A stretch of DNA of 64,000 nucleotides from a virus. Location of the stretch: the IMG/VR virus record IMGVR_UViG_3300046820_001014, positions 24,420 through 88,419 of that record. One strand, 5' to 3'. Below the pieces are notes generated by a model that did no database searches, was not told the DNA's origin, and saw nothing but the letters and a program-made list of their open reading frames with translations. A program made the position numbers and the translations under genes. This document shows, one piece after another, positions 23,865 to 36,848 of this stretch. Each line of letters opens with the position of its first letter. Position 1 is the stretch's first letter.

Positions 23865-25580
23865 TTAACCTTCACAAAACACACACTCTTCAAATGTGCT
23901 ACCTTTCATATCTCTAGACAAAATAGATTCTGTCCTTACATAGTATAAACTCTTAAGTCCTTCTTCCCAAGCTGTGTAATGTACTTTATTAAACCACTTA
24001 GGTTCTACATCAGCAGGAAAGAATAAGTTTAAGGATATACCTTGATCTATAAACTTTTGCCAAATAGCAGCTTGTTTAACTAACTCTAACTGATTAATCT
24101 CATAAGCTGTAAGGAAAACCTCTTTTTCTTCATCTGTAAGAAACTCACACCATTGACAAGAACCTTTATGCTCTACTGCTAACTTATTCCAAAATTCAAA
24201 TGTATTATGTTCTGAGTATTTCTTAGATATAAGTCTTTCAAAGTTATAATTTCTTCTGATAAAAGTTCCTTTAGCAGATTGTTGAGTCCAAGCATTAGCT
24301 ACAATAGGTTCTAATCCTTGAGATACTCCACTACTAACTAATGAGTTTGTTGTAGTTGGAGCAATAGCAAAGAGTGCTAAGTTTCTATTCTCATCACACC
24401 ACTCAGGTTTACTTAATAGATTACCATACTTCTTATTATAAGATTCTCCCTGCTCCTTCATCCAAGATCCTATCTTATAAGATAGCCCTCTTGTTTGTAG
24501 AGATATAAATGGAATTTTCTTCTTTTGTAAATATGTATGCCAACCAAGTATTCCTAATCCTAGTAATCTACTCTTCTCAGCAAATCTTACAGCATTCTCA
24601 AATCCAGGTTTACCCTTAGCTTGAGATATAAAGTAAGACATATTAGTATCTAAGAATAATAGAGCTAACTCTATAAACTCAGGATCTTTCATTATATCAT
24701 CTATATAAATAGCATTAATAGATGCTAAGTCACAAACTACAGTATGAAGCTTATCATGAGGAGCCATAATTTCAGTACAGATATTAGTACCATCAATCTT
24801 TAAGTTTCTCTTAACCATATCTGCAGGTTTAAACTTATTAGCATTATGATAGTACATAATATAAGGCTGACCAGTCTTCATTCTAGCAGATAATGTTTCT
24901 GCCCATAGCTCTAAGTTCTCGGAGTTAGTTTTTAAGGATTCCATAAAGTAATCATCAATAGTAAAACAGTGATTTAAGTTTAAACACTGTCTATTAACAT
25001 CACCCTTAGGTTGTCTCATCTTTAAGAACTCCTTAGCATCCTTATGTCTAATAGGTAGATTAATAGATGCCGCACCTCTCCTAACAGAACCTTGATTAGC
25101 TGCTATAATAGCACTATCATATACCTTTAAGAAAGGTATTACACCTTCACTAAATCCTCCTACACTAATTGGTTCACCTCTACCTCTAATCTTATCTACT
25201 GTAATACCAACACCACCTCCCATCTTAGTAAGAAGAGCTAACTCATGAGCTTTTAAGTAAATATTATCTAAGGAGTCTTCTACTCTTTCTATAAAACAAG
25301 AAATTGTAAATCCTCTTGTAGTACCAGTATTCGCAAGTATAGGTGTGGCTGGGCATAACCAACCTTTCCACATATATTCAAACCATTTATCTTTAATTTT
25401 ACCTCTATCTAAATTAGTAAAAACCTCATGATCTAAATATTGAGATAAAGTAGTAGCAATTCTCCCATACATTTCTCTAGGAGTCTCATTATCTAAAAGA
25501 TGTTGTCTTTTTAAGGTTTTTAAACCTTCCTCTTTCATCCATTCAGGATAATCTACACCTTCTTTCCAGTTATCTATCAT
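23865..25580 (-). CDS. nrdA: Class I ribonucleotide reductase alpha subunit (no ATP cone)
   Basis: ATPILAN, ISCF, NICTEI (N-C-E), APTTTNS, KSLYY and C-terminal CVFC. Confidence 0.95.
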   Translation of the reverse strand: MIDNWKEGVDYPEWMKEEGLKTLKRQHLLDNETPREMYGRIATTLSQYLDHEVFTNLDRGKIKDKWFEYMWKGWLCPATPILANTGTTRGFTISCFIERVEDSLDNIYLKAHELALLTKMGGGVGITVDKIRGRGEPISVGGFSEGVIPFLKVYDSAIIAANQGSVRRGAASINLPIRHKDAKEFLKMRQPKGDVNRQCLNLNHCFTIDDYFMESLKTNSENLELWAETLSARMKTGQPYIMYYHNANKFKPADMVKRNLKIDGTNICTEIMAPHDKLHTVVCDLASINAIYIDDIMKDPEFIELALLFLDTNMSYFISQAKGKPGFENAVRFAEKSRLLGLGILGWHTYLQKKKIPFISLQTRGLSYKIGSWMKEQGESYNKKYGNLLSKPEWCDENRNLALFAIAPTTTNSLVSSGVSQGLEPIVANAWTQQSAKGTFIRRNYNFERLISKKYSEHNTFEFWNKLAVEHKGSCQWCEFLTDEEKEVFLTAYEINQLELVKQAAIWQKFIDQGISLNLFFPADVEPKWFNKVHYTAWEEGLKSLYYVRTESILSRDMKGSTFEECVFCEG

Positions 25581-28368: not shown

Positions 28369-29307
28369 TTAAATATTAATTAAATAACTATTATTATACT
28401 CCTCAAGAGTATAATTCCACTCATTTTTCTCCATATGCCACTTAATTCTTTTTAAAAGATTGTTATATTCTATCTCTCCTCTATCAATTTGAGTATCAGA
28501 AATCTTATAACAATGTCTTGTAAAGAATTGAGTATCAACTACCGGCATATAACAAGAGAAAGAATAATCTGGAAATACTGTAGATAATGCAAGTTTATAG
28601 AAAGCCATTTGTCTGTAATACTTCCAGAACTCAAAACTCTCTGGAAAGAACTGTGCTCTCTTAGATGTAGTCTTTAGATCTACAAGTACACAATACTTCT
28701 CCTTATGGTTTATAATAACTCTATCAAGTCTACTTTTACAAGGTATATCTAAGTACTCAAAGTATATCTCATACTCATTAAATATCTCACAATTACTCCA
28801 ATCTTGAAAGAGATACTTAGTACAAGCAGCATGAGATCTTAGAGCATTAACACATCCTTCTATAACTCCTTTCTGCTCTCTAGTCATAAACTGCTTACCT
28901 TGATTAAGTTCCAGTTCTGCTATATACTCATAAATATTACTTTTCTTAAGTGTATTTAAAAGAGTCTCATCTTTATAGTTATTATAATAAGATGCTAATC
29001 TTGCAGCTTTAATAAGAACTTCATCCTGAGTCTCAACAAGATGAGAATCTTTAATCTGAAAGTATTGTGTAACTACATTACACAAACTCTCATTAGGTTT
29101 AGCTACCTCTGATACAACAAACTCTTCAGGACTCTCACAATACAGATGTAGGAGGCTTCCGTTTTCTAGACTTGGGCTTGGAGCTAACTTTTGTATTGTT
29201 CCCTCCAGATACATCTGAAACAGCTTTGGACTTCCTCCTTGCTCTGGGTTTATCAGGGATAGAGTGCTGTTGGCTATCTCCCTCCTCTCGTAATAATTGG
29301 TTATCAT
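28369..29307 (-). CDS. PD-(D/E)xK exonuclease (RecE/exonuclease VIII-like)
   Basis: GSLLH, CKSRLD, VDLKTT and YYRQMAFY. Confidence 0.8.
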   Translation of the reverse strand: MITNYYERREIANSTLSLINPEQGGSPKLFQMYLEGTIQKLAPSPSLENGSLLHLYCESPEEFVVSEVAKPNESLCNVVTQYFQIKDSHLVETQDEVLIKAARLASYYNNYKDETLLNTLKKSNIYEYIAELELNQGKQFMTREQKGVIEGCVNALRSHAACTKYLFQDWSNCEIFNEYEIYFEYLDIPCKSRLDRVIINHKEKYCVLVDLKTTSKRAQFFPESFEFWKYYRQMAFYKLALSTVFPDYSFSCYMPVVDTQFFTRHCYKISDTQIDRGEIEYNNLLKRIKWHMEKNEWNYTLEEYNNSYLINI

Positions 29308-29668
29308 ATATTTTTTTAATTTGTTCTAATACTTCCCTACATTGTTCTTGATTTCTAGGCATAAAGAATAAGTGGTCAGAATACTTAAATTTGAACATCT
29401 TATGCTTAATCTTAGCTTTCTCCTCAAGAAGTCCCTTTGTCTCAATAACTATCTTACTATCTGTAAGATAAAAATCAGACACATACTCTATCTTTCTAAT
29501 AGTTTTACCTTCATACTTAAAACTAGGTTGAATCTCAAAAGGTTCTTGTAGTTTTAAGCATGTAAGTAAATTATTACTTTCTAAGAGTTTGTAAAAATAC
29601 AACTCTAATCCACTATCAAAGATTAAGTTGTTATACTTAATCTTCTTAGTGGCATAATATTTCCTCAT
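29135..29668 (-). CDS. DUF1064-like PD-(D/E)xK endonuclease
   Basis: FDSGLE, LQEPFEIQPSF, EYVSDF and IETKG. The C-terminal tail overlaps the next gene. Confidence 0.75.
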   Translation of the reverse strand: MRKYYATKKIKYNNLIFDSGLELYFYKLLESNNLLTCLKLQEPFEIQPSFKYEGKTIRKIEYVSDFYLTDSKIVIETKGLLEEKAKIKHKMFKFKYSDHLFFMPRNQEQCREVLEQIKKIYDNQLLREEGDSQQHSIPDKPRARRKSKAVSDVSGGNNTKVSSKPKSRKRKPPTSVL

Positions 29669-29679
29669 AATATTTTATA

Positions 29680-30270
29680 CTAAAATGGTAGCTCAACATG
29701 ATTTATAAACTTAGTTCTTTCCTTAACTAAGTTCTCAACAAATCCAGCTAATAATTCTTCTTTAAAGCCTTTTACATCTTTAATACTATCAAACTCATAT
29801 ACTTTATGAAAGATATCATAAAGATTAGTAAATTCCTCATGTATAACCAACTCAGGTGTATAATCCGGATTTCTACCTTCTACTCTACCTCCTATACTAG
29901 TATAAAATCTTTCTACATGCTCAGAATATGTATTATAAAATGCTTTAGTTACATGTATAACATTTTTTGTATAATAACCAATATCTACTTTCTTTTTACA
30001 CAAAAGAAATACTATGTTACCATCTAAATCATAAATACTATCATAGAATACATAATATGGAAAGAAAGACTTTAAGTACTTTCTATTATGAGTGCTTTTT
30101 GTATTACAAAGTAATTTTGCAAAACAATCAAATAGAGTAGTTCTAGTCTTCTTAATTGAGAATGGTTCATAATTAAAAAGATTTACTTTCCACTTATTTA
30201 TGTGAGGTATTTTAGTGGAAGCATAATACTGTCTTACTAAAGCTCTTAATTCATCTGTTGTTACTGCCAT
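29680..30270 (-). CDS. Hypothetical protein following the E1-like gene
   Basis: Overlaps the E1 stop; ends in LPF. Confidence 0.6.
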   Translation of the reverse strand: MAVTTDELRALVRQYYASTKIPHINKWKVNLFNYEPFSIKKTRTTLFDCFAKLLCNTKSTHNRKYLKSFFPYYVFYDSIYDLDGNIVFLLCKKKVDIGYYTKNVIHVTKAFYNTYSEHVERFYTSIGGRVEGRNPDYTPELVIHEEFTNLYDIFHKVYEFDSIKDVKGFKEELLAGFVENLVKERTKFINHVELPF

Positions 30271-30932
30271 GTCAAACCATTAAAAGTATGAAAGAAAGGT
30301 ACTTCTCTAATCTCTTCACCAATATCTTCAATATGTTTCTGATTAGCAAGATAATTACATAAGAGTGCTACAGCTTGAGTTGCTACCATAGCTGCATAAT
30401 GTCCTGTCTGCTTGTAGCTACAAGGTAAATCAGGTATCTCATCATCTCTTCTCAAAGAATCAAGATACATCTGTACATGTTCTTCCTTATGTACACAGAA
30501 TATTTGAAACTCTTCTGCTTGCAATCTGGTATCTATAAAGATTTTTCTATCTTCTGTCTTACACCACTCCTCAAACATAAGTTTTCTAGCTTCCATATTG
30601 TCAAACATAGCAAAGCAGTAAGGAGTTACCTCACAACCTTCTTCATATTTACCAAGATCATCTAAGATACCATTAGAATATTCTTTAATCATAACAGCAA
30701 CTGCTGCAGCTTTAGGTTTACCTAAATCATCATACCTAAAGAATTGACAATCTAAATTTACATCCTCTACAGTATCCATCTCATAAGCAATTAAATGATG
30801 CCTAAGTCTGGATAGAAAGAAAGCTACATAAGCACCTACACCACCAAGTCCCCCTAGAATAATTTCTAGGGGTTTTTCTGTTACAAATGGTGCTGCTGAG
30901 AATCTACTAAATTCTAAACGATTATACCTCAT
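30261..30932 (-). CDS. ThiF/E1-like ubiquitin-activating enzyme
   Basis: SRFS, GLGGVG nucleotide-binding loop, DTVEDVNL..Q, KPKA, FDNMEARK, IDTRL, and candidate catalytic Cys in PCSYKQT. Confidence 0.88.
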   Translation of the reverse strand: MRYNRLEFSRFSAAPFVTEKPLEIILGGLGGVGAYVAFFLSRLRHHLIAYEMDTVEDVNLDCQFFRYDDLGKPKAAAVAVMIKEYSNGILDDLGKYEEGCEVTPYCFAMFDNMEARKLMFEEWCKTEDRKIFIDTRLQAEEFQIFCVHKEEHVQMYLDSLRRDDEIPDLPCSYKQTGHYAAMVATQAVALLCNYLANQKHIEDIGEEIREVPFFHTFNGLTWQ

Positions 30933-31950
30933 TGCTTAAAAGATATTCTTGCCACTCCTTATCAGTCATTCTGGAAATATCTTTAACAGGTTTACTACTT
31001 CCAAAGGTAACTTCCTCAAAATCATCTTTAAGATCATCTAGAAGAGAATAGATAGCACCTAAACCATCAACAATAAGAGTCTTATGTTTATGTTTACTAT
31101 CAACATCATCAATAAAGTTAATTAATTGAAAGAGAGAAGCTTTAGTAGCAATATCTTTACCTTGCTCTACATGATCTATGCAAAGTTTTTCTACCTGATC
31201 TAGGTATACCTCAACATCTTCTGGAGTTCTAATCTCATCCAGAGCTTCTTTTAAAGACCTAAACTTAAAATTAATAGTACCAATAGAGTACTTAGTAATA
31301 GGAGAAACTTTATAGTGGGGAGTATAAAAAGGTAAATGAGTTTGGGCATTAACAACTTTAGTAGCTTCTTTAGCTTTAAAGATTGTATCAAACTCTTCTT
31401 GAAAATCACTACCATTTGCACCAGAGATACTTACAGGTAAAGAAAACTCCATAATAATTTTACCATCAGTAATATCTTTAGATGTATAGTTACTATCCAT
31501 ACCTCTAACACCTACAGTTTGAATAATCATATCAGTAGCAATCCTAGCATTAAAATCTAATTTATTATTAACAATAACAGATAGATGAAAAGGAAAGTTA
31601 CTTATATTATCATATAGATGTTTATCATCTACACCTGATGGGCTTACACCCATATTATGATGAGAGTGAATACTGAAAAACATTACAGGCCACTTCTCTG
31701 AGTTATCCTCAAAATAATCAGCTAATGTTGATCCCCAATCATATTCTGTGTAACCAGAAGTACCTACATCTTTAAGTATCAAATCTATTACATGTAGTTG
31801 TAGAGTATCATCATAGATATCTCCCTCAACCTTCATGACACCTACTCCACTCCACTCTATATTAGAGCACCTGGAATTGAAATACTTGATTTTCTCCAAC
31901 ACTCTGTTCTCCAGAGTTATTGGATTCTTTAGATTTTTTTTTATAATCAT
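30922..31950 (-). CDS. JAB/MPN+ metallo-isopeptidase
   Basis: EWSG followed by IHSHHNMGVSPSGVD, the JAMM E...HxH...S..D motif. Confidence 0.88.
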   Translation of the reverse strand: MIIKKNLKNPITLENRVLEKIKYFNSRCSNIEWSGVGVMKVEGDIYDDTLQLHVIDLILKDVGTSGYTEYDWGSTLADYFEDNSEKWPVMFFSIHSHHNMGVSPSGVDDKHLYDNISNFPFHLSVIVNNKLDFNARIATDMIIQTVGVRGMDSNYTSKDITDGKIIMEFSLPVSISGANGSDFQEEFDTIFKAKEATKVVNAQTHLPFYTPHYKVSPITKYSIGTINFKFRSLKEALDEIRTPEDVEVYLDQVEKLCIDHVEQGKDIATKASLFQLINFIDDVDSKHKHKTLIVDGLGAIYSLLDDLKDDFEEVTFGSSKPVKDISRMTDKEWQEYLLSNEV

Positions 31951-32992
31951 TGTAAATTTTATTTATTAAGTCTTCTTTAGCATAATTATTCATAAAATAC
32001 TGCAACCAATCATCAATATCAGTGTAAAGTACTCTTGAGTTTTTATATATTGTAGTATGTTTTTTATGTTTAATGTGTCTACAATCAAACATTACATGAC
32101 TTGAGAGTTTCTCTAATTTATCTTGTTTAATAGTATTATCCTCAGAAAACAAATGAAAATAATCTTTCTTAAGATCAGAACTATTAAGGTTAAGTTTAAC
32201 TTCATTCTTAAGTACAGAAATAGAGATATACTTATGAATATTATTTAATAGTTCTTCATTATTAAAGATAATACTCTGAAATTCTGATTTTGATAAATTT
32301 TTACCTTTATTTAACTTATCTAAAGCATAATAATGATCACCATGTTCTGTCTTTTGAGAAACAGTTCTATAGAAATTTACCCAAAATATATCAGCATCAT
32401 TCTCATCAAATGTATCATGATCATAATGCAAATTAGTAAGAGACATTGATAGTGGAGAAGATCCCATACAAAAAGAACTAAAATCACTACTTAAGTGAGG
32501 ATGTATAAATTTAGGATTATTAATATCTACAGTAGTTCTAAAACCTCTTAGAGAAACAGTATCTATATAAAAATACATATCTCTAAGCTCAATAGGATTT
32601 CTACCAGTATTAACTTCTTGTAACATTATTTTTGGAAAATGAAATCCTAGATAATAATTTCCACTAACAGTAATTAATCCTATTTTACAAACACTCTCAT
32701 CATATAACTCAGAAGCTTTAAGCTTTCTATATTTCTGTATAAGACTAAGTTGAGTGTGATCTAGAGCATTTTTATTAAAGTTACTTAAGTTTGTAAAAAA
32801 ACTAGTATCTCTACCATTAATTTTCTCATTAAGACTTGTAAAACCTAATGAGTAATACTCATAAATCCTCCACTTATTATATTGTTTGGTATACTCCTCA
32901 ACATCAATATCTAAACTGAAAATAGGTCTAAGAGCTCGGGGCCTCCTAAGAAGCCCCTTAATCTCTTTAAACTTATTACTTCTGAGTTGCAT
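31862..32992 (-). CDS. Prokaryotic E2-like (UBC-fold) protein candidate
   Basis: FHFPKI...FRTT...FIHPHLSSDFSSFCMG resembles the HPH/HPN...C-x-G E2 active site. Located between the Ubl and JAB genes. Confidence 0.62.
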   Translation of the reverse strand: MQLRSNKFKEIKGLLRRPRALRPIFSLDIDVEEYTKQYNKWRIYEYYSLGFTSLNEKINGRDTSFFTNLSNFNKNALDHTQLSLIQKYRKLKASELYDESVCKIGLITVSGNYYLGFHFPKIMLQEVNTGRNPIELRDMYFYIDTVSLRGFRTTVDINNPKFIHPHLSSDFSSFCMGSSPLSMSLTNLHYDHDTFDENDADIFWVNFYRTVSQKTEHGDHYYALDKLNKGKNLSKSEFQSIIFNNEELLNNIHKYISISVLKNEVKLNLNSSDLKKDYFHLFSEDNTIKQDKLEKLSSHVMFDCRHIKHKKHTTIYKNSRVLYTDIDDWLQYFMNNYAKEDLINKIYNDYKKKSKESNNSGEQSVGENQVFQFQVL

Positions 32993-33509
32993 ATTTAGCC
33001 TCAGCTAAAACTCTCTCATTGAATTGTGTAGCATTAGAAGTATTTCTAATACCTAGTGCATACTCAACCTCAAATAGTCTTGCCTCAAGAACAGAACTAT
33101 CAAATTGTCCTGTTGTTCTCCTTTGTAGTGTTTGCAAAACATCCTCAAGTTTTGCCTTCATTTGAGCTAGAGAATCATGAGTATAATTACCAATAATATC
33201 AATGATTACCTCATCATCATTGGTTACAGCATCAAGTCTGTACTGCTTAAGAGCAGCTCTAACTTCATGATACTCAGCCATTGCAGCCTTCATATCCTTA
33301 GGAGAGATAAATACTTTAAGGTTACCTTCTGGAAGAGCAGCATCAGCATGCTCTAGAGAGTAAAGAGCCTTACCAACAGTAACTGTCTTGTTACTGAAAT
33401 CTACTGCAGGAAGAGCAGCTACTAGTTGAGAGAAGGTAGATACACCAGCTTCTACCTCAAATTGATTAACCTGTGAATTGTTTGTTGTTACAACAGTTAC
33501 TTTACGCAT
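32976..33509 (-). CDS. Ubiquitin-like (beta-grasp) domain fused to a helical C-terminal extension
   Basis: The first ~76 aa show a beta-beta-alpha-beta pattern (RKVTVVT, QFEVE, TFSQLVAAL, TVTVG, LPEGNLKVFISP). First gene of the E2-JAB-E1 cluster. Confidence 0.6.
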   Translation of the reverse strand: MRKVTVVTTNNSQVNQFEVEAGVSTFSQLVAALPAVDFSNKTVTVGKALYSLEHADAALPEGNLKVFISPKDMKAAMAEYHEVRAALKQYRLDAVTNDDEVIIDIIGNYTHDSLAQMKAKLEDVLQTLQRRTTGQFDSSVLEARLFEVEYALGIRNTSNATQFNERVLAEAKYATQK

Positions 33510-33520
33510 AACTTTAAGTT

Positions 33521-34477
33521 TTATAAAATTGAATTTAACAAATCCTCTATATATTCATGCCCGAGGATCTTATAGGCATCAGAGAAATCTTTAATCCCCA
33601 TTTCTCTGTATTCTTTAGGGAATAATAATACTGGAATATTGAATTTCTTTCTTATAAGTATAGCAGCTTTTTTACCAGCATTATCATTGTCTGCAAGATA
33701 CAAACAATTATACTTATTTACAAGCCATGCTGGAGGGAGAACACTCTCCCCCTGCATAGCTACAGCTTGTATACCAAATAATGATAAACATACTACATCC
33801 TTATAACTCTTAGTTATTACTAATAGTTTAGGATCATTAATATATTCTATACCTTGTATACTTTTACTATTACTTATAAATCTATACTGTTTTCTCTCAG
33901 GAAAATAAGCTTTAACAGATGTGTCTGAGAATATGTATAAGAAACACATTTCCTCACCTCTAATGCAATTGACAAAGTTTCCTTCATTGTTTTTTACATA
34001 TAAATGCTTGCATGAGTGTATATTGAATTTCTGTAAAACCTCTAAGCCTATACCATATTGTTGCCAGTATTCTAACTCCTTATTAGAGAACTCTTTAAAG
34101 TTAACTCTTATTTCTGCACTTTTCTTCTTATCCACAAAGCTCAATCTTGCAATCTGTGTTTTATTATTTTTGTTATTTAATAAATGATAAGGAATAGTGC
34201 TCTTTAAAGTATTATAAATATCCAACAGTGCTTCTTGGTAACTAAGTTTCTTTAGATACATAACAAAAGATATTGCGTCTCCACAAAACTCTCCTGGTCT
34301 GTTATCATAATAACGTAGTATGTTACCATAATATTGAAATGCACATGTTGGAGACTTATCTCTCCTCAAAGGACTTATAAAGTTACCTTTAACTACTGGA
34401 ACGCCATAAGCTTCAAATATACTTTCCTGTGAAAAGGTTTTATAAACATAGTCCCTACTTAAATTAGAGACATACAT
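33521..34477 (-). CDS. dnaG: DNA primase (Zn-binding-like domain + Toprim)
   Basis: SPLRRDKSPTC, ITKSYKDV, ADNDNAG and KDFSD; crAss-like primase pattern. Confidence 0.85.
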   Translation of the reverse strand: MYVSNLSRDYVYKTFSQESIFEAYGVPVVKGNFISPLRRDKSPTCAFQYYGNILRYYDNRPGEFCGDAISFVMYLKKLSYQEALLDIYNTLKSTIPYHLLNNKNNKTQIARLSFVDKKKSAEIRVNFKEFSNKELEYWQQYGIGLEVLQKFNIHSCKHLYVKNNEGNFVNCIRGEEMCFLYIFSDTSVKAYFPERKQYRFISNSKSIQGIEYINDPKLLVITKSYKDVVCLSLFGIQAVAMQGESVLPPAWLVNKYNCLYLADNDNAGKKAAILIRKKFNIPVLLFPKEYREMGIKDFSDAYKILGHEYIEDLLNSIL

Positions 34478-34480
34478 TTA

Positions 34481-35065
34481 TTAAAATGGCAAGTCGTCTG
34501 CTCCAGTAGGAGCACTAGTAAAGTCAGCACTTACTTCAGGCTTAACTACTACATCAGTAGGAGTAACATTTAGCTTATCACTATTAGGAGCAGCAATGTA
34601 ACCACTCTTTGCAAATTCCAGATATCCAGATTTGCCATAGACAAGCTTAACATCAGCAGTCTTATCACTACCTACTGCAGTCACAAAGTTCTTGCAGAAC
34701 TCATTGTAGTTTTTACCCTCTACTACTACATCACCAATAACAGCAGTCAATACTGTTTTGGTATCTCTAATAAAGCCCATCATCTCAAGTGCATTAGAAA
34801 CTTCATCAGTCATTTCTACACCTTTCTGACCTTTAACACCATTAAACTCAAAGTTAAATGGACAAGCTCTACCCATTGGGTTACCAGCTTGTTTAGGTTC
34901 CCACATAATTTTCTTAATGTTGCTATCAACAATTCTAAGAGACAAGACAGGATCACCAGAACCATCTTTTCTAAGAGGTTCAAAAATAGCTTCTACAGGT
35001 ACATTAACATTGATACCTGGTTTTACTGAAGCAGCAGGGGCTTTTACACTATTAGTATTAAACAT
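34481..35065 (-). CDS. Putative ssDNA-binding protein
   Basis: Acidic C-terminal DDLPF tail; lies between the ATPase and primase genes. Confidence 0.6.
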   Translation of the reverse strand: MFNTNSVKAPAASVKPGINVNVPVEAIFEPLRKDGSGDPVLSLRIVDSNIKKIMWEPKQAGNPMGRACPFNFEFNGVKGQKGVEMTDEVSNALEMMGFIRDTKTVLTAVIGDVVVEGKNYNEFCKNFVTAVGSDKTADVKLVYGKSGYLEFAKSGYIAAPNSDKLNVTPTDVVVKPEVSADFTSAPTGADDLPF

Positions 35066-36218: not shown

Positions 36219-36848
36219 TTATTCTTTATATTTAAAAATCCATTTGTTTTCATAATTACTTTTAACTCTTTTTTCTAATCTTGGTTTAATTTTATTTAAA
36301 CTGATATTTAATTTTAAAGAACATTCTTTAATAGAGTCAAACTCATAAATAATATTATCTTCTAGATCTGTAACAATAATAGCTCTTTTATTATTTTCAG
36401 CCATTACCTTACATCTTTCAGATATAATATTTATAAATTCAATATTTTCTTTCAAAGATTTAGATTGAGCTTTTCTATGAGATTCTGGTTTATTAGCTAA
36501 ATATACCTCTAGCTTTTTTCTTCTATCTGCTCCCCAAGTTACTCCTAAAGTATTACCTGCTGTTTTGCAAATATCATAACCAAAATTATCATCATAAGAC
36601 TTCCATAAATCTTTATAATATTGTTCTCTTATTAAACAATCCTCTGAGTTGCAAAACTCTACTATTTCAAACTTAAAATTACTTTCACCATATTTGTTAA
36701 AAGCATTTTGTAAATGAGTACTAGTATGTTTGTTTAATCTTAATCTATAAAGATGTTCCCACAATCTTCTTTTAATAGTCCTTGTTGAACTTCCAACATA
36801 AACTTTACCATCTAGCAAATTTAATATTTTATAAACTCCTGACAACAT
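36219..36848 (-). mobile_element. Free-standing GIY-YIG homing endonuclease gene
   Basis: GVYKI...VYVGSS...RRLWEH...LQNAFNKYG...REQYY...GYD, with a C-terminal NUMOD1-like segment. Confidence 0.88.

Follow-up and report, generated by a model that had tools for sequence, protein, structure and literature searches.

The DNA analyzed here is a 64,000-nucleotide window (positions 24,420 to 88,419) of the IMG/VR virus record IMGVR_UViG_3300046820_001014, in which five genes next to a primase gene encode what appears to be a ubiquitin-like conjugation cassette. The record is 88,419 bases long and 46% complete according to CheckV; the G+C content of the window is about 30%, and the whole stretch is present in two runs of one freshwater metagenome sample, from which the DNA may originate. 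The cassette occupies positions 29680-33509 on the minus strand and consists of five co-directional open reading frames (ORFs). They encode a 177-amino-acid (aa) precursor of a ubiquitin-like protein (Ubl; domain at 33282..33509, C-terminal extension at 32976..33281), a 376-aa protein resembling ubiquitin-conjugating (E2) enzymes (31862..32992), a 342-aa JAB/JAMM metalloprotease (30922..31950), a 223-aa minimal ubiquitin-activating (E1) enzyme of the ThiF family (30261..30932) and a 196-aa fifth protein ending in ...VELPF (29680..30270). From the Ubl gene to the fifth gene, the overlaps between neighbours measure 17, 89, 11 and 10 nt. Upstream lies the primase gene (33521-34477; match to phrog_12622, 6.2e-34), separated from the Ubl gene by 11 nt.

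A sequence-only reading of this DNA had proposed a complete conjugation operon of five overlapping genes directly after the primase. All five genes were found on the minus strand at the positions given above, as were all of the motifs quoted in that reading (HPHLSSDFSSFCMG, EWSG, HSHHNMGVSPSGVD, GGLGGVG, DNMEAR and PCSYK), and the gene set and gene order were upheld. The operon itself was not: scans for consensus promoters and terminators did not set the five genes apart (39 promoter-like sites, compared with 41.9 +/- 6.3 expected), so the genes form a tight block within a long co-directional array of replication genes, and a separate operon is not demonstrated.

We searched 50,697 phage records. 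Nucleotide searches and searches with the E2-like protein returned nothing; only the E1 protein found relatives, matching 79 phage records by tblastn. These include 29 FpV4-type Flavobacterium phages, 29 Bacteroides crAss-like phages (crAss001, DAC15 and DAC17 among them) and jumbo phages of Xanthomonas (4) and Erwinia (1). The order primase-Ubl-E2-JAB-E1-gene 5 was preserved in 74 of 75 IMG/VR loci, a set in which FpV4-like Flavobacterium phages, crAss001 and DAC15 are included. Co-occurrence was tallied at loci with at least 4.5 kb of sequence upstream of the E1 gene, which omitted 5 of the 80 related loci. Upstream of E1, the motif at the end of the Ubl domain and the motif of the E2-like protein were present at 75/75 loci, and the JAMM motif at 74/75; the exception is locus L033, where a break at HxH divides the JAB gene into two ORFs. 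In the E2-like motif, 10 loci have Q-S-H in place of H-S-H, and it is the pattern allowing both that fits all 75. With 48 E2-like and 133 Ubl homologues and an order kept throughout nearly all related viral loci, the block is beyond chance.

In public records, the cassette genes are labelled 'thiamine biosynthesis protein', 'E1 enzyme family protein', metalloprotease or hypothetical. The annotated order in FpV4 and cr111_1, for example, is primase/toprim, three hypotheticals, a 'thiamine biosynthesis protein' and another hypothetical, the third hypothetical being noted as a metalloprotease in cr111_1. Among prokaryotes (one genome per species, 185,579 species), only nine relatives of E1 were found, all on contigs of metagenome-assembled genomes. 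The phage order of the E2-like, JAB and E1 genes is seen in seven of them, and the other two are cut by contig ends. Because relatives are so few and confined to such contigs, the cassette is assigned, on its distribution, to phages and not to their hosts.

The E1 protein passed the Pfam ThiF cut-off (8.1e-8; 32.1 bits, cut-off 28.1) with a single ThiF domain at residues 23-206, and matched phrog_15670 at 3.2e-41. Its closest sequence relatives in the PDB are MccB (5.1e-10) and UBA5 (5.9e-8), followed by PaaA, the NEDD8 E1 and TcdA. The glycines of GxGGxG (G28, G30, G31 and G33), D53, K74, D111, R116 and Cys171 (codon at 30420-30422) were invariant in 64/64 unique relatives. This count omits five loci without an exact GxGGxG, namely four FpV4-like loci with GxGGxS and L064, in which E1 is cut short; the FpV4 E1 also has Cys171 (alignment A4). 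Cys171 lies 60 residues past the DN motif, a spacing which we take to be that of the crossover-loop cysteine in ThiF and MoeB. The closest NCBIfam models are ThiF equivalogs (5.3e-9 and 2.2e-7), both far under their cut-offs (36 bits against 159 for NF006395 and 31 against 152.2 for TIGR02354). Since the ThiF/MoeB equivalog cut-offs were far from reached, the role of a thiamine enzyme was rejected, and the 223-aa protein is solidly predicted to be an enzyme of the E1 superfamily, as the sequence-only reading had it.

That reading had also recognized a JAMM protease, and the full motif was confirmed. Residues E32, H95, H97, S105 and D108 of the 342-aa protein were invariant in 32 diverse members, and the catalytic domain lies within about the first 140 residues. 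Pfam Prok-JAB was matched by 29 of the 32 family members (best E 1.1e-6); the window protein alone scored E 0.052, under the cut-off, and the family profile (A10) found no meaningful match among PDB sequences. Because the family members keep the JAMM motif and nearly all match Prok-JAB, the prediction of a JAB/JAMM metalloprotease is solid. At L033:3774-5516 (and in L032), the JAB gene is present as two ORFs split at the HxH motif and about 290 bp apart; an insertion, an intron or an assembly error could be the cause of this break.

The modifier itself is extremely constant. Among 24 homologues, no variation was seen at 65 of the precursor's first 76 positions, or at 32 of the 101 positions in the extension; the neighbouring E2-like protein in the same phages goes down to about 47-50% identity. 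Over the 76 codons of the domain, seven relatives showed at most 27 synonymous and at most 3 nonsynonymous codon differences, which suggests that the domain is under selection at the level of the protein. The predicted structure has the beta-grasp topology, with ubiquitin-type fold matches that include ThiS, TtuB and MoaD. The 177-aa precursor was recognized by no sequence library (Pfam, PHROGs, PADLOC, NCBIfam and PDB sequences), and Pfam scans of the Ubl members gave only single faint matches of beta-grasp type (DIX, DUF348 and Gln-synt_N, one member each). That the modifier is a ubiquitin-like beta-grasp protein is well supported, and the sequence-only reading of a beta-grasp-like N-terminal portion of about 76 aa followed by a helical extension was confirmed by these models: the extension is predicted to be helical, with a predicted local distance difference test score (pLDDT) of 77-89 in most blocks.

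The domain ends in a basic residue followed by two small ones, [KRA]-[SA]-[GA], in 76 of the 80 related loci; the other four gave no match. Among the 76, the ends were KSGA (25), RSGA (17), KSGG (5), KAAM (5), KSGN (4) and others. In the window, the domain ends in ...FISPKDMKAA and the next residue is Met, so the C-terminal Gly (usually Gly-Gly) that is a feature of Ubl systems is lacking there; it is present in relatives (K-S-G; ...ASGG in the Xanthomonas jumbo phage PhiXhv-16).

The company of ThiS, TtuB and MoaD among the fold matches raises a different function, in which E1 would convert the Ubl into a thiocarboxylate for the thiolation of a nucleotide, tRNA or the phage DNA, the JAB protease exposing the C-terminus of the Ubl as Mec+ does for CysO. 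The ThiF equivalogs nearest to E1 in NCBIfam, far below cut-off as they are, point the same way, and so does the position of the cassette amid genes for nucleotide metabolism and replication. Against a sulfur carrier, the Ubl of the window clade ends in Ala-Ala, an E2-like partner with an invariant cysteine has no role in known sulfur relays, and the whole surface of the Ubl is conserved to the degree seen in ubiquitin, which points to many partners among proteins. On the 88-kb contig, we found neither a PP-loop thiolase (PF01171) nor a rhodanese (PF00581) or a cysteine desulfurase (PF00266), which is weak evidence given that the contig is only 46% complete and host enzymes could serve. We consider this function very unlikely.

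The boundary between the Ubl domain and its extension is marked by natural gene structures. In three crAss-like loci (L035:2326-3255, L036:2102-3315 and L074:1725-2928), the domain is a separate ORF ending in KSGKF-stop, and the extension is an ORF of its own. In L036 and L074, an ORF for an HNH homing endonuclease lies exactly at the junction; L035 is split without an endonuclease. In L011, the Ubl protein stops five residues past KSG, and the extension is almost absent. Because of the split ORFs and the short tail of L011, the domain boundary is real. A group I intron was considered at the split genes and rejected, Rfam having found none at the gathering threshold in L035, L036 or L074.

PhiXhv-16 (PV764603.1; L085:1694-5570) shows a variant form of the cassette. 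It encodes a 140-aa Ubl-like protein that stops at ...KASGG, with the extension absent, an 892-aa protein with HPH...C-L-G and Cys-rich N- and C-termini (possible zinc fingers), and then a ThiF homologue. The JAMM motif was present in none of the seven neighbouring coding sequences examined. A modifier that needs no trimming, without a neighbouring protease, fits the JAB protein as the processing enzyme and the Ubl, E1 and E2-like proteins as the core.

The same comparisons bear on whether the Ubl is conjugated at all. It might be a cis-acting chaperone or timer for the helical protein, released by JAB, in the way of the ubiquitin-ribosomal-protein fusions. The extension is indeed conserved in its own right, with its 32 invariant positions, and is a separate gene in some phages; in one crAss-like lineage, it contains the C-terminal domain of ribosomal protein L7/L12 (Pfam, 1.6e-12). 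A maturation role would leave unexplained why an adenylating E1 with an invariant cysteine and an E2-like gene always accompany the Ubl, and why the Ubl stays with these two genes where the extension is missing, as in PhiXhv-16 and L011. We regard it as highly improbable. The lineage with the L7/L12 domain (PF00542) encodes a 312-aa form of the precursor (L068:2246-3181, also L071, L073, L075, L078 and L083), a fusion that recalls those of eukaryotic ubiquitin with ribosomal proteins.

The E2-like protein is the weakest link of the cassette. Its structural model, which is fairly confident (pLDDT 81.5, predicted template modelling score 0.70), comprises, in order, N-terminal helices, a four-stranded meander (residues 103-156), an HPH loop (164-166), Cys175 and helices at 180-190 and 197-212; the core resembling the ubiquitin-conjugating (UBC) fold spans approximately residues 77-230. 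Beyond these lie a further alpha/beta domain and then a disordered tail. The candidate active-site loop, from HPH to Cys175, is encoded at 32468..32503. In 33 diverse members from three phage clades, R152, H166, C175 and G177 were invariant and H164 nearly so, even though members from the other clades share only 13-18% identity with the window protein. The layout conserved among them, H-x-H and then Cys-x-Gly straight after the beta-meander, resembles the HPN...Cys rule, which is the layout of the E2 active site.

Structure comparison led to the same family of folds. Judged by title, 30 of 50 rows of a wide listing were E2, UEV or RWD proteins, as were 28 of the first 29 rows listed against the PDB. 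With Foldseek against the PDB, no row reached E <= 0.001; the weak rows include UBE2A, Tsg101-UEV and Cdc34. In BFVD, the window protein matched uncharacterised crAss-like proteins (E 5.9e-9 to 1.1e-7), and its link to the crAss-like and FpV4-like counterparts was drawn from these matches together with synteny and shared motifs. An HMMER profile of the family, run against 1.84 billion representatives, retrieved 12 clusters, all from its own clade. The ESM Atlas placed residues 77-235 beside clusters of 'PRTRC system protein B'/Prok-E2_D (feature score 0.92, template modelling score 0.54 over 133 residues), about half of whose recorded members are viral. This resemblance to Prok-E2_D is only a lead.

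If the protein were not an E2, the cassette might be an E1-only system, in which the Ubl is processed, activated by E1 and attached directly, as are the archaeal SAMPs or TtuB of Thermus, and the HxH...CxG protein binds metal, acts as a scaffold or is the principal substrate. The findings above argue against this: where the model matches anything, it is the UBC/UEV fold only; H-x-H is followed after about 8 residues by a cysteine past the meander, as in E2 enzymes; that cysteine is invariant across clades of such low identity; the gene always lies between those of the Ubl and JAB; and the Atlas lead points to Prok-E2_D. We judge attachment by E1 alone to be unlikely.

The E2-like and JAB genes share 89 nt (31862-31950), where the final 29 codons of the former are read in a different frame from the opening 29 codons of the latter, and similar overlaps were seen in FpV4 (125 nt) and cr111_1 (56 nt). 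On account of this overlap, the striking conservation of the tail of the E2-like protein in the window clade (NSGEQS.G.NQVFEFQML) may be an effect of dual coding; a clamp-binding or docking role for it was therefore set aside, and the tail differs in other clades.

The analysis establishes which domains E1 and JAB contain, that the modifier has a beta-grasp topology and hardly varies, where its domain ends, which cysteines never change and that the genes keep their order. Each chemical step below, and every target, is inferred. The JAMM protease would cut the 177-aa precursor after Ala76 (in relatives, after the Gly of K-S-G), which would release the beta-grasp modifier, 76 residues long, and leave the helical part as a protein of its own. 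E1, of minimal ThiF type and probably homodimeric as are ThiF, MoeB and UBA5, would adenylate the new C-terminus, and the modifier would be loaded onto Cys171 of E1 and passed on to Cys175 of the UBC-like protein. By means of its extra N- and C-terminal domains, and perhaps of the fifth gene product, the latter would attach the modifier to lysines in proteins of the phage or the host while the infection is in its replication phase. The JAMM protease may also recycle conjugates. Taken as a whole, the cassette probably represents a true phage-encoded Ubl conjugation cascade, at a probability of about 0.68. The view of the sequence-only reading, that the phage has a protein-tagging system of its own, is thus partly supported. 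Nothing in this analysis shows an anti-defence role.

Several points weigh against a conjugation cascade. The first concerns the E2-like protein. The conserved Cys175 and the E2, UEV and RWD fold matches agree with the E2 proposed in the sequence-only reading, but a tie to any E2 was found by no sequence method. The 33 members had nothing relevant in Pfam and NCBIfam, with PF14460 unreported at E <= 1; the family profile (A6) found nothing among all PDB sequences; and hhalign of the family against 10 genuine Prok-E2_D proteins (the aligned members of a set of 11 genes from 401 Bacteroidota genomes) gave a probability of 0.39%. The sole local alignment of that run does pair the Cys-x-Gly motifs of the two families. 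The second concerns the modifier: the pLDDT of the Ubl domain model is only 50-60, the domain has no sequence match in Pfam or the PDB (profile A5 against the PDB), and the predicted mature end in the window clade (K-A-A, then Met) is Ala-Ala, not Gly. The third concerns E1, which is a lone adenylation domain without a separate catalytic-Cys or E2-binding domain, which leaves no evident way in which it would meet an E2. Finally, the stretch is listed in no RNA run, and no conjugate, target or phenotype is known.

The cassette resembles several known systems in part. Like Cap2 and Cap3 of type II CBASS (cyclic-oligonucleotide-based antiphage signalling system), it combines E1, E2 and JAB chemistry without an E3. 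Cap2/Cap3 accepts a C-terminal Ala as well as Gly. However, in Cap2 the E1 and E2 are fused and act on the tail of the CD-NTase, and there is no Ubl, whereas the cassette has a dedicated Ubl, separate genes and no cyclase in the block. The PADLOC 'E1-E2' models matched E1 at residues 23-83 only (E 4.7e-4), and PADLOC had no match for the Ubl, the E2-like protein, JAB or gene 5. The PRTRC system of plasmids and integrative elements, with the ThiF protein TIGR03736 and protein B (Prok-E2_D), likewise resides on mobile elements, and the cassette E1 matches PRTRC_ThiF weakly (E 6.7e-5). That match amounts to 22.3 bits against a TIGR03736 cut-off of 144.75; the profile comparison of the E2 family with Prok-E2_D was not significant, and neither ParB nor any other PRTRC gene lies in the block.

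Further likenesses are to Bil and to type I Bub. As described for BilA-BilB-BilC-BilD in the sections of PMC11601596 that deal with Bil, both Bil and the cassette have separate genes for the Ubl, the E2, the JAB/JAMM peptidase and the E1, neither has an E3 gene (the Bil E2 is proposed to choose its target itself), and both appear to use cysteine-based chemistry. On the same account BilD is a multi-domain E1, whereas that of the cassette is a single domain of 223 aa. Bil is a bacterial defence system, whereas the cassette is carried by phage genomes of lytic type and hardly ever occurs in bacterial ones; no sequence similarity between them was found beyond the nucleotide loop of E1. Type I Bub (BubAB, BubCD and BubE), according to the portions of Ye et al. 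(2024 preprint, PMC11601596) that treat it, is likewise a five-part system with an extra fifth protein and a minimal single-domain E1, in which the catalytic residue would be on the adenylation domain itself, and its Ubl is a fused precursor released by JAB. By the same portions of that source, Bub forms oxyesters at Tyr (E1) and Ser (E2) without catalytic cysteines, whereas Cys171 and Cys175 are invariant in the cassette; Bub fuses Ubl to E2 and E1 to JAB, whereas the cassette genes are all separate; and Bub has a DUF6527 protease, whereas the fifth gene of the cassette has no DUF6527 match. Apparently, the cassette works like Bil and is laid out like type I Bub, and it fails defining features of both.

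In phages, the only Ubl and JAB pair that we found in print is the tail-assembly pair of lambda/T1, TAPI and TAPK (JAB-NlpC). As presented in the relevant passages of Iyer et al. (2006; PMC1779556), what TAPI has in common with the cassette is a beta-grasp domain encoded by the phage: it has a C-terminal Gly and another domain fused to it, and a phage JAB is predicted to set it free. TAPI and TAPK are described there in a tail module without E1 or E2, whereas the cassette is in a replication module with both. In the literature that we searched, no paper describes a phage-encoded Ubl-E1-E2-JAB set.

In each of the three clades, a gene occupies the fifth position. Its crAss-like and FpV4-like versions are homologous to each other (hhalign probability 92.8%, E 4e-7); against these two, the window-clade version reached only 1.2% and 0.3%, too little to show homology. 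The 196-aa window protein had no match in Pfam, PHROGs, PADLOC, NCBIfam or the ESM Atlas, and the fifth gene of any clade had no match to DUF6527 or to another Pfam family. An acidic C-terminal tail, ...(D/E)LPF, recurs among several proteins of the replication module: in the 194-aa protein adjacent to the primase (34481-35065; ...ADDLPF), in the fifth protein of the window (...VELPF) and in that of the FpV4 clade (...EDLPF); the tail of one crAss-like primase reads ...DDECPF. These examples were taken from the window and from L014, L019, L033 and L036. The tail presumably resembles the C-terminal hub peptide of bacterial single-stranded DNA-binding protein, and might link gene 5 to the replisome.

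The genes around the block form a replication and recombination module. Upstream are those for a Sak4-like annealing protein, a GIY-YIG homing endonuclease and the primase; downstream are a DUF1064 resolvase-like gene and genes for a PD-(D/E)XK exonuclease, PhoH and the small subunit of ribonucleotide reductase. The GIY-YIG gene is free-standing (36219-36848; phrog_314, 2e-29) and lies three genes upstream of the primase. The DUF1064 ORF (29135-29668) and the exonuclease ORF (28369-29307) overlap by 173 nt as listed; the Pfam match within the former covers residues 3-98 only, and one ORF limit may be over-called.

Until now, work on ubiquitin-type conjugation in bacteria has treated it as a defence of the host against phages (Bil, type II CBASS and probably Bub). 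The present findings raise the prospect, for which we see about even odds, that lytic Bacteroidota phages, including the crAss-like phages that dominate the human gut virome, run a ubiquitin system of their own, with a modifier as constant as eukaryotic ubiquitin and made, as ubiquitin is, in fusion with another functional protein; a minimal E1 and a very divergent E2 would attach this modifier to proteins of the host or the phage and thereby reprogramme the cell while the genome replicates. With phage-host pairs available in culture, this could be tested directly. If true, it would assign a function to four or five genes of crAss001, DAC15 and FpV4 that are labelled hypothetical, 'thiamine biosynthesis protein' or 'metalloprotease', and the minimal E1 and unrecognisable E2 would extend the known limits of cascade size and divergence. 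It would represent pro-viral protein tagging in bacteria, the mirror image of defence by Bil and CBASS; a complete phage-borne kit, fixed beside the primase in three clades of phages far apart from one another, would show this chemistry to be in use on both sides of the conflict.

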